In this document: piece by piece, positions 23,807 through 43,240 of the stretch
How positions within the stretch are numbered: position 1 is the stretch's first letter
Layout of the letters: the number at the start of each line of letters is the position of its first letter
IMG/VR virus record: IMGVR_UViG_3300034130_000030
Span: 1-43,548 of that record
Reading direction: 5' to 3' (one strand)
Origin: a virus
Lineage: Duplodnaviria > Caudoviricetes
Length of the DNA stretch: 43,548 nucleotides
Position numbers and translations under genes: made by a program
Notes under the pieces: model-generated
Seen by the model: only the letters and a program-made list of their open reading frames with translations
What the model was told of the DNA's origin: nothing
Database searches by the model: none

Positions 23807-23831
23807 CCCAGATCCAAACAGGCAATCGAAT

Positions 23832-23874
23832 GTAGACGGCGTGTAAGAGTAATCAAAACTTACACGCCGTCTAC
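23832..23874 (+). terminator. Perfect 16-bp hairpin after cassette 1
   Basis: gtagacggcgtgtaag / cttacacgccgtctac with an 11-nt loop, followed by T-rich sequence. Confidence 0.7.
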
Positions 23875-23909
23875 GTTTCGCCACTTTTACTTTGCATGTA
23901 TTTTTTAGC

Positions 23910-24180: not shown

Positions 24181-24213
24181 AAGCTTATAAACCCTAACCC
24201 GGTTTATAGGTTT
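24181..24213 (+). terminator. CTAACCC-loop hairpin
   Basis: aagcttataaacc-ctaaccc-ggtttataggttt. Confidence 0.7.
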
Positions 24214-24410: not shown

Positions 24411-24439
24411 GCCTATAAACCCTAACCCGGTTTATAGGT
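24411..24439 (+). terminator. CTAACCC-loop hairpin
   Basis: gcctataaacc-ctaaccc-ggtttataggt. Confidence 0.7.
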
Positions 24440-24444
24440 TTGCC

Positions 24445-24473
24445 TCGCAAAAAATACACACTGTATAATGAGA
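24445..24473 (+). promoter_or_regulatory. Cassette promoter-like motif copy 4 (no CCCC, no adjacent RBS)
   Basis: tcgca-aaaaatacacactgta-taatgaga. Confidence 0.75.
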
Positions 24474-24549
24474 GAAGTCCTCGATTAGAAGAGGCCAAGC
24501 CGTAACAAGTATCAAATGCGGAAATAGGTTTAAGCCCTATACTTCTCTT
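24470..24549 (+). ncRNA. Candidate cloverleaf (four-way junction) small RNA
   Basis: Closing stem agagaagt/acttctct plus three internal hairpins, followed by a T run. Folded by eye. Confidence 0.55.
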
Positions 24550-24587
24550 TTAATTTTCGCCCCCCACCCTCATCAAAGGAGCACGTC

Positions 24588-25025
24588 ATGGTGGACTTCG
24601 CATTGGGAATCTGCACCGTCACAGGAGCAATCGTTCTGTGTGGACTGGCGCTCTGCGTCATCAGTCTGTTGATCTTCGGCTTGCTCATGCTGTTGGATCG
24701 TCAGATGGACAAGTGGCAGGCTCGCCATGCCGGCGAGAAGATGGAGAAGACGGAGAACTGGGAAACTCGATACGACCGGGACGCGGCCTCGCTCGAGTTC
24801 GAGGACATGATCTTCGGTCACAAGAGTGCCGCACAGGTCGAGGAAGAAGCTCGTATGATGAACTACGTCGTAGATGACGTAAAGCTCACCAACGATCTCT
24901 TCAGCCAAAAACACCCGGACAGTGGTGAGAACGCAGTACACGCAGACTCGGCCGCAACACAATTCATGGACAAGGTGGAGGTACTGGGTGATGAGCAATT
25001 TCAGGGAGCTCGCCACAAGGGCTGA
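24588..25025 (+). CDS. Membrane-anchored hypothetical protein
   Basis: AAAGGAG RBS, long N-terminal hydrophobic segment, acidic soluble domain. Confidence 0.7.
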   Translation: MVDFALGICTVTGAIVLCGLALCVISLLIFGLLMLLDRQMDKWQARHAGEKMEKTENWETRYDRDAASLEFEDMIFGHKSAAQVEEEARMMNYVVDDVKLTNDLFSQKHPDSGENAVHADSAATQFMDKVEVLGDEQFQGARHKG

Positions 25026-26550: not shown

Positions 26551-26660
26551 CGAGGGTGGGGAACTGGCAAGGGCCCGTCGCGGGGTCTCACCCTTGTCCG
26601 GATGCCAGTTTTAAACGACCGCCGTAGTGCGCCCTCCCGCGAAAAGGTGCCCCTACCTCG
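26551..26660 (+). ncRNA. Candidate structured RNA with kissing-loop/pseudoknot
   Basis: Closing stem 26551-61/26650-60. Inner stems aactggc/gccagtt, aaggg/ccctt and gcgcc/ggtgc. Complementary loop segments tcgcggg (26578-84) and cccgcga (26636-42). Confidence 0.5.
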
Positions 26661-29971: not shown

Positions 29972-32900
29972 ATGGATTTCTTTACTATACGTACGAAGGA
30001 GACGAAGGAAGGAATTGATGTATATCCTGACTTCATCGTCGGACGGTCAAACGATCTCATGGTCAGAGGCCGTTCGTTCTACGCTATCTGGGATGACGAC
30101 AGGGGTTTGTGGTCTACAGACGAGTACGATGTTCAACGTCTAGTGGACAACGAGCTCAATTCTTTCGTCAAGAAGGATGGCCCTACGTACAAGGTGAAGT
30201 ACCTTCAATCGTTCAATGGGCAGGGCTGGAGTCAGTTTCGTAGGTTCCTCCAGAACATCAGTGACAACAGTCATCAGCTAGATTCGTCATTGACCTTTGC
30301 AAACAGTGAAGTCAAGAAGACTGACTACGCAAGCAAGAGGCTTCCATATCCTCTCGCTCCTGGCGACTACAGCGCTTGGGACGAACTTGTAGGGACGCTC
30401 TACTCTGTCGATGAACGACGTAAGATTGAGTGGGCAATTGGGGCTGTCGTATCCGGTGACTCGAAAAAGATTCAGAAGTTCCTCGTGCTATACGGAGCTG
30501 CCGGTACTGGTAAGTCCACAATCCTGAACATCATCGAAGCAATGTTCGTTGGTTACACCACATCATTCGAAGCAAAAGCTCTTGGTAGTAACAACGGCAC
30601 GTTCGCAACCGAGGCGTTCAAGAACAACCCGCTCGTTGCAATCCAGCAGGATGGTGACTTGTCCAAGATCGAGGACAACACCAGATTGAACTCAGTGATC
30701 GCGCACGAACCGATGACCATGAATGAGAAATACAAGCCCAGCTATACCGATCATGTAAACGCGTTTCTCTTCATGGGTACGAACCAGCCAGTCAAGATCT
30801 CGGATGCAAAGTCAGGAATTATTCGCCGGCTCATTGATGTACATCCTACCGGGGTATTGATTCCTACAAACCACTACCACACGCTAATGGCTCAGATCCA
30901 GTTCGAGCTAGGAGCAATCGCCCACCACTGTCTCGAGGTCTACAGAGGTCTGGGCAAGAACTACTACAACGCATACCGTCCGCTCGAGATGATGTTCCAG
31001 ACAGACATATTCTTCAACTTCATCGAGGCAAACTACGACATCTTCAAGAGTCAAGACGGCGTGTCGCTCAAGCAAGCATACGCTCTGTACAAGGAATTCT
31101 GTGGTGAGACTGGAATTGATAAACCAATGCCACAGTACAGAGTACGGAACGAACTTCGAAATTACTTCGAAGAGTTCAAAGACAGAGTTGAGATGCCAGA
31201 CGGAACGATAGTTAGAAGCTATTACTCCGAGTTTAAAGCACAACCGTTCAAGGCTCCAGTGAACGACGACGTCCGGACTTTCTCATTGGTAATGGATGAA
31301 ACAGAATCACTTCTGGACGAAGAGTTCGCTGAACTGCCCGCTCAGTATGCGACAGAGCACGGAACACCCAAAGCAAGTTGGTCTAAAGTCAAGACCAAGC
31401 TGTCGGATATTGACACGAATGAAGTGCATTACGTCAAGGTGCCAGAGAACCACATCATCATCGACTTTGATTTGAGGGACGAAGATGGAGAAAAGTCACT
31501 CGAACGAAACCTCGAAGCCGCGTCCGTCTGGCCCGCAACCTACGCAGAACTCAGTAAATCCGGGCAAGGGGTCCATCTTCATTACAATTACCCCGGTGAC
31601 GCAACCGAACTTAACTCTCTCTATTCTGAGGGAATTGAGATCAAGGTGCTGCAGGGGAATGCTGCGCTGCGACGGAAACTGTCCAAATGCAACAATGTAC
31701 CGGTCGCGATCATAAACGGAGGCCTTCCACTAAAGGAGAAAAAAGTGCTCGGAGCCAACACCATCCAAAGTGAGAGGGGCCTTCGTGATCTGATCGGTAA
31801 GAATCTTCGTAAAGAGATTCACCCCGGTACGAAATCGTCGGTCGACTTCATCAAGAAGATTCTGGACGACGCATATCTGTCGGGGATGTCATACGACGTC
31901 TCGGACCTTCGTTCCAGGATCATCGCGTTCGCCAACAACTCGAGCAATCAGCCCTTGCAGGCACTGAAGACCGTGACTGAGATGAAGTTCAAGGGTTCGG
32001 AGATCATGGTTCCGGTGGACGCAACAGGGCCGGACGACCCCCTGGCGTTCTACGACATCGAGATCTACCCGAACCTCTTCGTGGTTTGCTGGAAATACGA
32101 GGATGATCCGACCGTCGTTCGAATGTTGAACCCGTCTGCCCAGGACGTCGAGAAGCTCATGAAGCTCAGGCTCGTCGGCTTCAACAACCGTCGGTACGAC
32201 AATCATATCCTGTACGCGGCTTACATGGGCTACGACAACAAGGGTCTGTATGAGCTGTCGCAGAAGATCATCGACGGCAAGGGTGGATACTTCGGTGAGG
32301 CGTACAACCTGTCTTATACCGACATCTACGACTTCAGTTCCAAGAAGCAGGGGCTGAAGAAGTTCGAGATCGAGTTGGGTATCCATCACATGGAGCTCGA
32401 CTTCCCGTGGGATCAGCCGGTCGACAAGAAAGACTGGACGAAGGTCGTCGAGTACTGCGTCAACGATGTTCTGGCAACCGAGGCCACGTTCAAGGCCCGA
32501 AAGCAGGACTTCGTGGCGCGTCAAATCCTTGCTGAGCTCAGTGGGCTGTCTGTGAACGATACTACGCAGCGTCACACAGCAAAGATCGTTTTCGGTAACG
32601 AAAAAACCCCGCAGGGGAAATTCGTGTATACCGATCTGAGCGAGCAATTTCCCGGGTACACATTCGACATGGGAAAGAGCCATTACAAGGGCGAACTCGT
32701 AGGAGAGGGAGGTTATGTCTACGCTGAACCGGGTATGTATAAGAATGTTGCCCTACTTGATGTTGCGAGTATGCATCCTACGAGCATTGAGGTCCTTAAC
32801 GCCTTCGGAACGGAGTTCACTAAAAACTTCGCTGACCTCAAGAGAGCCCGAATGGCGATTAAACATCGAGACTACAAACTCGCTCGGACTCTTCTGGGAG

Positions 32901-40582: not shown

Positions 40583-43240
40583 ATGGCTATAGTGCTGATC
40601 AGCGAAGACGACTATCTGGCGCACTACGGTACCAAACGCCATTCTGGTCGGTACCCTTACGGCTCTGGTGGAGATGATCAGGCCGGCCCACGCAACCCAA
40701 CGTTCTTGGACAACGTCGCTGAGATGAAGCGCAAGGGTCTGAGTGAAACGGATATTGCTGCAGGATTGAGCATGACCACAACCCAGCTCCGTGCTCGTAA
40801 GTCGATCGAGAAGAATGCTCAGAAGCAGGCACAGATTGGTATGGCGCAGCGCCTGAAGGACAAGGGATATTCCAACGTCGCTATCGGCGATCGCATGGGA
40901 ATCAATGAGTCCTCAGTGCGCAGTCTTCTGACGCCAGGCCAGCAGGACAAGCTCGATGTTCTGCAGACCACAGCCAACATGCTTCGTGATCAGGTCACTG
41001 AGAAAGGCTTCATTGACATCGGTTCTGGAGTGGAGAACCATATTGGTGTCAGTGCCACCAAGCTGAGCACAGCAGTCGCCGTGCTTCAGGAAAAGGGCTA
41101 CACAGTACACAAGGTCAAGGTCGAGCAGTTGGGTACTGGCAATCAAACCGAGATCAAGGTACTTGCGCCTCCTGGAACTACACAGAAAGAGGTATGGCAG
41201 AATCGCGACAAGATCAATCAGATCACTGACTTCTCTGAAGATGGTGGTCGATCATATCTTGGAGTCCAGCCTCCGTTGAACATCAGTTCAAAGAGGATTG
41301 GCGTGCGGTACGCAGAGCAGGGAGGCGCCGATGCAGATGGTGTCATCTACGTCAGACCCGGGGTTGATGATATCTCTCTCGGCGCCTCCCGTTATGCCCA
41401 GGTTCGTGTGTCAGTTGATGGCACGCACTTCCTCAAGGGCATGGCAATGTACAAGGACGATTTACCAGCGGGCACAGATCTTGTGTTCAACACGAACAAA
41501 TCAGATACAGGTAAGAAGACTGATGCGTTCAAGGAACTGAAGGATGATGCAGATAATCCTTTCGGTGCTGTAGTTCGTCAGAAGATCGGGCCTGACGGCA
41601 AGGTCACATCTGCCATGAACATCGTCAACGAACAAGGGGATTGGCAGAACTGGTCTCGTAGTCTCTCTTCACAGATGTTGTCTAAGCAGAGTCCTGCTCT
41701 AGCTAAGCAGCAGTTGGATCTCGCATTCGCTGTGAAGAAGAATGATCTCGATGAGATCAAGTCTCTGCAGAATCCAGCAGTAAAGAAGAAGTTGCTTGAG
41801 GCTTATGCTGATGGCGCCGATTCTGCTTCAGTACATTTGAAGGCTGCAGCTCTACCACGTCAGGGGTCACATGTTATTCTGCCTGTGAATAGCATGAAAG
41901 AAACTGAGATCTATGCGCCCAACTACAGGAATGGCGAACGAGTTGCGCTTGTTCGTTACCCTCACGGTGGTGTATTCGAGATCCCTGAATTGACCGTGAA
42001 CAACAACCACCCTGAAGCTAAGAAGCTTCTCGGTAATGCGCCAGATGCAGTTGGTATCCATTCGAAGGTAGCAGAGCGGCTCTCTGGCGCAGACTTCGAT
42101 GGTGACACAGTGCTTGTGATTCCGAATAATCACAGGGCTGTCAAGACTGCGCCTGCCTTGGCTGGATTGAAAGGCTTTGATCCTAAGGCCTCATACCCAG
42201 CTTACGAAGGAATGCCCAAGATGACGCCTAGACAAAAGGCGATTGAGATGGGCGTTGTGTCGAACCTGATCACAGACATGACTATTCGTGGAGCTACACC
42301 ATCTGAGCTAGCTCGAGGTGTACGTCATTCCATGGTGGTTATCGACGCAGAGAAGCACAACCTGAACTACAAGCAGTCAGCACTAGACAACGGCATTGGT
42401 CAGCTGAAGGCCAAATACCAAGGCAGTAGTAAAGCTGGCGCATCTACCCTGATTTCAAGGGCTAGTGCTGAGATCCGTGTCTCTGATCGTAAGGCTAGAT
42501 CAGCTGCTAAAGGTGGTGCTATTGACAAGGCCACTGGCGAGAAGGTGTTTGAGGACACTGGCGCTACCTTTGTCAATCGTGCAGGCAAGACAGTTCCTAA
42601 AACCATCAAGTCTAGGAAGCTGGCCGAAACAAAGGATGCCAATACCCTGTCTTCAGGTACCACTATGGAGAAGGTGTATGCAGACCATAGCAATGGGTTG
42701 AAGGGTCTGGCTAACGAGGCACGCAAAGAGATGGTGAACACAAAGAGTACCCCCTATTCACCTTCTGCGAAAGCCGCCTACCATAAAGAAGTGGCCTCCC
42801 TCAACGCCAAGTTGAACGTGGCCCTCAAGAACCGGCCCCTCGAAAGACAAGCCCAGGTCCTAGCAAACACCACCCTCTCCGCAAAGCGACGTGCCAATCC
42901 AGATCTCGAACCATCAGAGGTCAAGAGATTCAAATCTCAAGCTCTTGCAGAAGCTCGTCGCAGAACGGGTGCAGCAAAGACCCAGATACAGATCACCGAC
43001 CATGAATGGGCCGCCATTCAAGCAGGTGGTGTCAGTACCAACAAGCTGGTGCAGATCCTCAACAACACAGATCTAGATGCAGTCAAGCAATTGGCTACAC
43101 CTAAGTCTACTATCTTGATGACACCTGCTAAGTCTGGTAGAGCCCATGCTATGCTAGCTGCTGGGTACACACAGGCTGATGTAGCAGATGCACTAGGCGT
43201 ATCACTCAGCACATTGAAGAAGAGTATTGGAGGATCGTGA
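40583..43240 (+). CDS. Single-subunit two-barrel RNA polymerase (YonO-like)
   Basis: LVRYPH and LSGADFDGD (DFDGD at 42092-42106), the beta-prime-like catalytic loop. HTH-like segments near both termini. Confidence 0.8.
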   Translation: MAIVLISEDDYLAHYGTKRHSGRYPYGSGGDDQAGPRNPTFLDNVAEMKRKGLSETDIAAGLSMTTTQLRARKSIEKNAQKQAQIGMAQRLKDKGYSNVAIGDRMGINESSVRSLLTPGQQDKLDVLQTTANMLRDQVTEKGFIDIGSGVENHIGVSATKLSTAVAVLQEKGYTVHKVKVEQLGTGNQTEIKVLAPPGTTQKEVWQNRDKINQITDFSEDGGRSYLGVQPPLNISSKRIGVRYAEQGGADADGVIYVRPGVDDISLGASRYAQVRVSVDGTHFLKGMAMYKDDLPAGTDLVFNTNKSDTGKKTDAFKELKDDADNPFGAVVRQKIGPDGKVTSAMNIVNEQGDWQNWSRSLSSQMLSKQSPALAKQQLDLAFAVKKNDLDEIKSLQNPAVKKKLLEAYADGADSASVHLKAAALPRQGSHVILPVNSMKETEIYAPNYRNGERVALVRYPHGGVFEIPELTVNNNHPEAKKLLGNAPDAVGIHSKVAERLSGADFDGDTVLVIPNNHRAVKTAPALAGLKGFDPKASYPAYEGMPKMTPRQKAIEMGVVSNLITDMTIRGATPSELARGVRHSMVVIDAEKHNLNYKQSALDNGIGQLKAKYQGSSKAGASTLISRASAEIRVSDRKARSAAKGGAIDKATGEKVFEDTGATFVNRAGKTVPKTIKSRKLAETKDANTLSSGTTMEKVYADHSNGLKGLANEARKEMVNTKSTPYSPSAKAAYHKEVASLNAKLNVALKNRPLERQAQVLANTTLSAKRRANPDLEPSEVKRFKSQALAEARRRTGAAKTQIQITDHEWAAIQAGGVSTNKLVQILNNTDLDAVKQLATPKSTILMTPAKSGRAHAMLAAGYTQADVADALGVSLSTLKKSIGGS

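Follow-up and report, generated by a model that had tools for sequence, protein, structure and literature searches.

In the phage genome analysed here, one of seven copies of a repeated promoter is predicted to drive a structured RNA of 80 nt in place of a protein (Table 1), and cassettes of this build are, as sequence comparison shows, a recurrent type in the phage group, alternating with protein cassettes behind the same promoter. The window, i.e., the whole stretch of DNA analysed, is a viral record of 43,548 bases with an estimated completeness of 73%; its genes and relatives place it in a group comprising Streptomyces cluster BI, Gordonia DJ, Rhodococcus CC, and Arthrobacter AM/AU phages. 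For this group, a putative RNA polymerase bearing the motif DxDGD has been described (accessible part of 10.1101/842583), and the product of ORF 40583-43240 is the candidate reader of the promoter copies.

The predicted RNA unit behind promoter copy 4

The motif TCGC-N7-ACW-N7-TAAT occurs seven times in the window, always on the + strand. Six of the copies are followed by a GAGACCCC leader and then by a ribosome-binding site (RBS) and a small ORF, whereas copy 4 runs on into GAGAGAAG and lacks both the leader and the RBS, which bears out the original prediction that this copy alone (one of seven) is without the CCCC leader and an adjacent RBS. In none of the other six does the 5' end pair with a strand further downstream. 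Copy 4 has its predicted +1 at 24470 and is a likely site for the phage RNA polymerase. The hairpin that ends the preceding protein cassette has a second copy near 24184-24213, 90% identical (repeat D4).

Table 1. Features of the RNA cassette, its surroundings, and the candidate polymerase
Feature	Position	Strand	Basis or characteristics
Terminator-like hairpin and T run, end of the preceding protein cassette	24412..24441	+	Repeat D4, sequence
Promoter copy 4, TCGC-N7-ACA-N7-TAAT	24445..24469	+	Copy comparison, stem register; predicted +1 at 24470
Predicted small RNA, 80 nt	24470..24549	+	MFE/centroid fold, class statistics
Closing stem, 9 bp	24470-24478 with 24541-24549	+	MFE and centroid
Arm 1, 4 bp, 8-nt loop (GAUUAGAA)	24479..24494	+	Place and size of a D-arm, without GG
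Arm 2, 5 bp, 12-nt A-rich loop	24500..24521	+	MFE, pair probabilities
Arm 3, 5 bp, 7-nt loop UUUAAGC	24524..24540	+	Stacked straight on the closing stem
U-rich tail TTTTAATTTT	24548..24557	+	Sequence
RBS (24575-24581) and ORF 24588-25025, 145 aa	24575..25025	+	Hydrophobic N-terminus
Candidate phage RNA polymerase (phrog_4291)	40583..43240	+	DFDGD at residue 504; C-terminal HTH

The MFE and centroid structures of the unit coincide and reproduce the four-way junction proposed earlier, the closing stem of 8 bp gaining a terminal G-U pair. The 80-nt fold has a free energy of -21.9 kcal/mol (z -2.75; 1 of 200 shuffles equally stable), and all 23 predicted pairs have probabilities of 0.73-1.0 and are free of bulges. 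The 62-nt interior without the closing stem is not significantly stable (z -1.26; 57 of 500 shuffles as stable), and four-way folds also arose from 607 of 5000 shuffled interiors; the fold signal of the RNA stems mostly from its closing stem. Loop-loop pairing within the 80 nt amounts to at most 3 bp, internal repeats of at least 9 nt are absent from it, and it matched none of the ribozyme, YrlA, ToxI, or abiF families of Rfam. The U-rich tail is likely to provide the 3' end by intrinsic termination, and a simple terminator scan made no call there. No small ORF lies inside the unit: each of the three + frames is interrupted by a stop, and an RBS is missing. The claim that a non-coding RNA takes the place of a protein after copy 4 is supported. 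We hold with good, sequence-based confidence that the unit represents a real stand-alone RNA.

Other elements of the window were observed alongside. A YidD domain (PF01809, E 3.8e-17) lies in the phage gene 36594-36956, directly upstream of promoter copy 7. A long, nearly perfect inverted repeat (23829-23876), far longer than the other terminators, separates cassettes 1 and 2, and similar repeats were seen in the phages Bilo and RosaAsantewaa. A second conserved structured element (26558-26624) precedes the promoter copy at 26658 and carries a loop antisense to the GAGACCCC leader. In an alignment of 16 phages picked from 25 pattern hits, GGGTCT is invariant, the complementarity to the leader stops at +1 (4 of the 16 have A at the next-but-one base past it), and all 16 can form a pseudoknot of 3 bp, with one compensatory change; the element has no Rfam match. 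A role in silencing or processing the early transcripts of protein cassettes is conceivable; the target of its antisense loop is missing from the RNA cassettes.

Cassette class and transcription start

We defined a class of closed-stem RNA cassettes by the group promoter, a stem from +1, a U tail, and no RBS or ORF, a definition that the RNA of the window fits. Screening viral contigs in 15 of 64 parts of the collection for a promoter that continues with GAGA and then two purines yielded 134 loci with 145 distinct copies, 143 of which had enough downstream sequence: 74 were closed without an ORF and had a T-rich tail, 48 had an ORF only, one had both, and 20 had neither, while dinucleotide shuffles closed in 53 of 715 cases. 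A census independent of this motif, in which a promoter profile was applied to the best 80 of 574 polymerase relatives, found 440 promoter copies in 79 of the 80 loci, every one on the + strand (322 with an ORF only, 59 closed without an ORF, nine with both, and 50 with neither); at least one closed unit was present in 35 of these 80 loci. These counts are lower bounds, because several of the cases scored as neither are visibly closed; the strict caller also missed visible units in Pepy6 and Conley. In the fetched loci analysed for closure, 166 of 343 distinct promoter copies were closed without an ORF, with a median length of 78.5 nt; across the class, the 8 nt after the stem contain a median of 6 T. 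Contigs binned with gut Firmicutes likewise carry closed units; the strict caller found none in the stretches examined of Scapunavirus Scap1, Bilo, RosaAsantewaa, and Bingvirus Kardashian.

The closed stems also bear on the start site, which had been placed at the G after TAAT. This placement is supported by stems that pair from +1 in 166 units and by 3' strands that follow changes in the 5' strand: GAGAAG faces CTTCTC in 63 of 85 cases and GAGAGG faces CCTCTC in 13 of 47, and among rare starts the same holds for AGAAGA/TCTTCT (2 of 3), GGAGAG/CTCTCC (1 of 2), and GAGAAC/GTTCTC (1 of 1). Of the 166 units, 101 have C and 61 have U opposite G+1, and Watson-Crick pairing occurs at -4 in 13/166 and at -6 in 29/166. 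The base opposite T-1 is A in 72/166, which fits a start at -1 and a preferred 3' overhang alike, and pairing at +2 to +5 is no evidence, because closure was the selection criterion of the caller. A start at +6 to +9, of the sigma-70 type, would abolish the closing stem (-12.5 to -13.2 kcal/mol). The stem register thus argues for a +1 start by the phage RNA polymerase and against sigma-70 spacing, and we infer that the phage enzyme starts there. The polymerase of PhiKZ initiates at the G of TATG (accessible part of PMC7618050). The genome notes on the cluster DJ Gordonia phages Vardy (PMC9671010) and Conley (accessible part of PMC10868162) describe, in the same genome region, a 43-50-bp intergenic motif that is the same promoter repeat; they differ from our reading in taking it for a sigma-70 -10 box upstream of protein genes and, in the text accessible, report no tRNAs. 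In Vardy, we found an unannotated tRNA-like cassette near 32548.

As to whether the repeats act as RNA, mismatches in the closing stems of 61 copies are G-T at 13 of 155 G positions and A-C at 1 of 209 A positions, a G-T excess such as an RNA on the + strand would show, the T-rich 3' strand explaining part of it. By a weak test of strand, 110 of 193 interiors fold better on +, 79 on -, and four tie, with equal shares of G-U pairs (307/3461 vs. 296/3381). The cargo enclosed by the stems provides what we consider stronger evidence for RNA than either the strand test or the closing-stem mismatches.

Cargo families and likeness to tRNA

Clustering of 158 closed units (45-140 nt), of which 33 have four-way folds, gave 99 clusters, and since 83 of these are singletons, the RNA of the window among them, singleton status is the norm in the class. 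One family is clearly derived from tRNA: it retains the D and T loops, has a longer closing stem and no CCA, and shows another structure, often a tetraloop, in place of the anticodon loop. In 12 hand-picked members, 82.7% of cells are paired, and covariation is 0.521 vs. 0.262 in shuffled alignments (0 of 500 as high), a comparison in which relatedness is uncontrolled. Members with a GCAA tetraloop, mostly without annotation, are present in cultured phages (L357:226-310, i.e., Rickmore, MK376953, 30598-30728; L717:429-510, Vardy; L514:8199-8286, Pepy6), and GenBank contains one version in 34 records from cultured Gordonia phages, Vardy among them; it is unannotated in 25 of 25 among the records listed. 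The largest family (25 members in the clustering; 85-130 nt) carries two loops, ACGAAU-like and UUCGAU-like, which remain complementary despite variation; 26 pattern-extracted members gave 117 paired loop bases vs. 93 when permuted (0 of 2000 permutations as many). Rfam has no match to this family. Loci of this family include L125, L134, L147, L185, L253, and about 20 more, as well as Pepy6 (L514 near 8322) and Conley (L515 near 1550). Internal repeats of at least 9 nt occur in 20 of 193 units vs. 2 of 965 shuffles. The cargo of these sister families appears to be under structural selection. What sequence comparison shows is the build of the cassettes, how they alternate with protein cassettes, the covariation of the scaffold, and the structured nature of cargos in sister families.

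Several further observations were made in the relatives. Cassettes with two to four tandem copies of one short bulged hairpin, and runs of several consecutive RNA cassettes, were seen at L527 (2114-2900 and 15225), L154, L253, L295, L536, and L585, and an ACCAG or CCGCCAG motif resembling a tRNA 3' end recurs in loops or junctions of otherwise unlike cargos (L146, L245, L567, L004, L241, L247, and L326). In 40 sister loci, Rfam recognised only tRNA (L210 with 51.3 bits; L126 with 26.8, below threshold), apart from sub-threshold miRNA/snoRNA noise. The 80 relatives also yielded 22 tRNA calls skewed to A/U-rich anticodons (Lys(UUU) nine, Leu(UAA) four, Ile(UAU) three, Thr(UGU) two, Met two, Glu(UUC) one, uncalled one), with real tRNAs at L518:3657-3730, L519:3257-3330, L537, L540, L547, L548, L562, and L584.

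The structural conservation in relatives on which the original prediction was made to depend is thus found for the scaffold, whereas the cargo of the window has no homologue. Blastn against phage records returned promoter-only or chance matches, and viral scans by the closing stem (81 and 49 loci) gave a best local score of 24 against a null maximum of 29. A viral scan by arm 3 gave 63 loci, none with a full promoter, one of which (L398) resembles a cassette with a variant promoter and a different cargo; a metagenome scan with one narrow pattern, which homologues changed in arm 3 would escape, gave 12 loci, none with the promoter. With a single-sequence covariance model run on 98 sources, the only other match was a real tRNA (E 2.5). 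The three inner arms have no covariation support, because the cargo has no close homologue.

In agreement with the original prediction, the RNA is not a canonical tRNA: neither ARAGORN nor Rfam, including RF00005, called it. It shares with canonical tRNAs a size of about 80 nt, the four-way junction, a 4-bp first arm with an 8-nt loop, and a 5-bp last arm with a 7-nt loop stacked on the closing stem. It differs in its 9-bp closing stem without encoded CCA (a 7-bp acceptor stem with CCA in tRNA), in its 12-nt middle loop, in its connectors of 0, 5, and 2 nt (2, 1, and 4-5 nt in canonical tRNA), and in lacking the D-loop GG and carrying U for C56. Arm 3 shows the features of a T-arm, namely a 5-bp stem closed by G-C and a stacked 7-nt loop with U54, U55, a purine at 57, and A58, and its loop equals the T-loop consensus except for the U at position 56. 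Arm 1 has A-G at the G-G position of tRNA, and the combination of G18G19 in the D-loop with U54U55C56 in the T-loop is not found. A folded G-UUNRANY-C loop on the closing stem occurred in none of 5000 shuffles, a pattern picked after the sequence was seen; it is present in 14 of 193 class units, 13 of which keep C56, the exception being the U of the window RNA.

With a covariance model of the tRNA-like cassettes (R2), the window RNA scores 18.5 bits and is the top match within the surrounding 3.7 kb. Clear tRNA-like members score 36.8-82.8 (some of them training sequences), real tRNAs and tRNA-like genes of relatives 24-52, and one non-tRNA cassette 22.3, while the remaining full-length matches across 130 loci reach at most 13.9. 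By this model, the tRNA likeness of the window RNA exceeds that of most of the class, a result that is not decisive. The proposal of a tRNA mimic is accordingly supported in part: the T-loop-like arm stacked on the closing stem and the clear tRNA derivatives among sister cassettes favour it, whereas the missing D-loop GG and C56, the swapped connector lengths, and the low score speak against it. The cargo may be a degenerate tRNA-like cloverleaf.

Proposed role and alternative explanations

In the reading that we prefer, and to which we give slightly less than an even chance, the RNA of the window is a stand-alone small RNA, carried in an interchangeable early cassette, that acts as a protein-binding decoy. 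The phage RNA polymerase would transcribe 80 bases, starting with the G after TAAT and ending at the U run; the closing stem would conceal the 5' end and double as the terminator helix, and because it does both, it could serve as a universal scaffold for exchangeable cargo. Displayed on it would be the degenerate cloverleaf with its T-loop-like arm. Produced early and in excess, the RNA may bind a host protein whose usual ligand is tRNA or a different structured RNA, and keep it from its real target; a defence nuclease or a toxin is the likeliest candidate. The original prediction had named anticodon nucleases as a possible target of such a decoy. Three considerations lead us to favour this role: tRNA elbows that lack an anticodon, like repeated hairpins, are unable to decode and resemble surfaces for protein binding; the units have small and variable early genes around them; and RNAs that neutralise defence proteins have precedents, i.e., pseudo-ToxI of phage PhiTE, an RNA mimic that blocks defence (accessible part of PMC3475682), and the two-motif antitoxin RNA RCd22, which neutralises AbiF (accessible part of 10.1101/2025.04.15.648962).

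According to the accessible parts of those two sources, the precedents share a model in which neutralisation of a defence protein comes about through binding by a small structured RNA that has both a promoter and a terminator to itself. The repeated hairpins of 20 of 193 sister cassettes resemble them in this respect, whereas the RNA of the window differs in having no internal repeat, no ToxI or abiF match, and no adjacent toxin gene, and the class differs in placing many unrelated cargos on one scaffold. The nearest known tRNA mimic, to judge from the accessible part of PMC4201824, is the bacterial Y RNA YrlA, present in some phages, which imitates the D and T arms of tRNA without decoding; it is, like the window RNA in its tRNA-like reading, a non-coding RNA of this kind. 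It differs in having a Ro60 (TROVE) gene within 4 kb and a GNCGAAN0-1G motif (PMC4201824, same part), neither of which was found here: the motif is absent from the window RNA, and no Ro60/TROVE gene is among the 30 ORFs scanned against PHROGs or the 25 scanned against Pfam, which include the neighbours of the RNA in a record estimated as 73% complete.

ORF 24588 bears on a stand-alone function: it has an RBS, but no promoter copy belongs to it, the gene scans assign it to no family, and it has no relative in the fetched loci. It may depend on read-through, which is likely in the window, and the RNA unit may have a dual role. The unit could be a leaky terminator or structured leader that sets how much transcription reaches the DUF6353 gene and ORF 24588, its inner arms mattering little; an RNA unit indeed follows the last promoter copy before a DUF6353-like gene in 19 of 56 census loci, and 44 of 54 distinct census RNAs have no directly following promoter. 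However, a protein cassette holds that place in 27 of the 56 loci (10 being unclear), so the downstream genes need no such leader, and since, in addition, a new promoter follows within 45 nt after 10 of the 54 RNAs, members of the class are not bound to a gene downstream. A promoter also comes at once after the Gordonia tRNA-like unit, the RBS region of the read-through transcript undergoes no obvious switch-like change in a single MFE fold, and termination needs no covarying cargo, yet sister families show such cargo. We regard a leader function as unlikely.

It is rather unlikely, too, that the RNA is what is left of a tRNA-like cassette in decay, its transcription continuing although its cargo has drifted and lost function. 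Its score below all clear members of the tRNA-like model, the loss of D-loop GG and C56, its singleton status, and its interior z of only -1.26 would be expected of a remnant, but the promoter is intact, the predicted pairs are uniformly probable and unbulged, and singletons prevail in the class.

Two other readings that leave the RNA a function are improbable. The original prediction had denied the RNA a 7-nt anticodon loop; this holds for the middle arm, with its 12-nt loop, whereas the loop of arm 3 has anticodon-loop form. The 15-nt hairpin of arm 3 is the tRNA-Leu(UAA) anticodon arm in 37 of the 108 viral loci that hold the 15-mer, so that some phage tRNA-Leu(UAA) genes have an identical arm; real tRNA-Leu(UAA) genes occur in 4 of 80 relatives, and the phage has eight TTA codons in 30 ORFs, one of them in the polymerase gene. 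Arm 3 might therefore mimic this anticodon arm and protect or replace a rare UUA-reading tRNA of a high-GC host. We rank this low, because the arm 3 stem accompanies that loop in only 1 of 120 loci selected by the loop alone and because any T-loop fits the anticodon pattern YUNNNRN by default (of the 11 loops in the class with this pattern, 10 are ordinary T-loops); moreover, the real loops of relatives read CUUAAAA or CUUAAAC, not UUUAAGC, and arm 3 occupies the T position. No better placed is a small RNA that acts by base pairing between its loops and mRNAs of the host or the phage, a role that the open 12-nt loop and the C-rich loops of some sister units would allow, but the loops here are A-rich, and a search confined to the window found no antisense stretch of at least 11 nt in the rest of it.

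Most improbable of all, we consider, is a DNA-level inverted repeat, such as a hairpin or a recombination site for cassette exchange, behind a host sigma-70 promoter: copy 4 does score as TTGCCT-18-TATAAT, as the published -10 reading would have it, and the A opposite T-1 could extend the repeat into the promoter, but the sigma-70 scan found one site vs. 2.0 in shuffles, several copies read TGTAAT, AGAT, or CTAT, the U tail is always one-sided at the 3' end, and the D- and T-loop sequences of tRNA, pairs of G with U, and covariation between loops are characteristic of RNA.

The decoy reading can be extended to the phage group in two parts, a joint proposal that we regard as possible but doubtful. 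The group, spanning Actinobacteria and gut Firmicutes, would hold a library of interchangeable RNA decoys, about a hundred unrelated folds (tRNAs lacking an anticodon, loop-loop folds, and tandem hairpins) displayed on a single scaffold that the first bases of the promoter encode, each directed against a different host RNA-binding defence or regulator, and a second conserved RNA, antisense to the leader that the protein cassettes share, would control these cassettes while the RNA cassettes escape. If this is true, the cargos would be a read-out of undiscovered RNA-sensing defences.

A member of the class has already been annotated as an unassigned tRNA, namely 'tRNA-OTHER' of Rhodococcus phage ReqiPepy6 (GU580941, 41206-41278), which shares the promoter, closing stem, and U tail and differs from the window RNA in having full D and T loops and a GCAA tetraloop for the anticodon loop. 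The promoter motif and the polymerase are already in print, whereas the RNA cassettes appear new: no description of them was found in the literature searched, most subscription journals lying outside its scope. The original Pepy6/Poco6 genome paper may comment on 'tRNA-OTHER'.

Few phage RNA decoys are known, and here a large phage group appears to hold dozens of unannotated small RNAs in a variable early region, built on one common scaffold. Since 34 records of cultured Gordonia phages contain a tRNA-like member, laboratory hosts allow an immediate test of the class. From the stem register, one can further predict where a phage RNA polymerase that is still uncharacterised starts, and with it the promoter logic; its motif has hitherto been read as sigma-70. 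If these RNAs are decoys, each cargo would point to a host protein worth finding.
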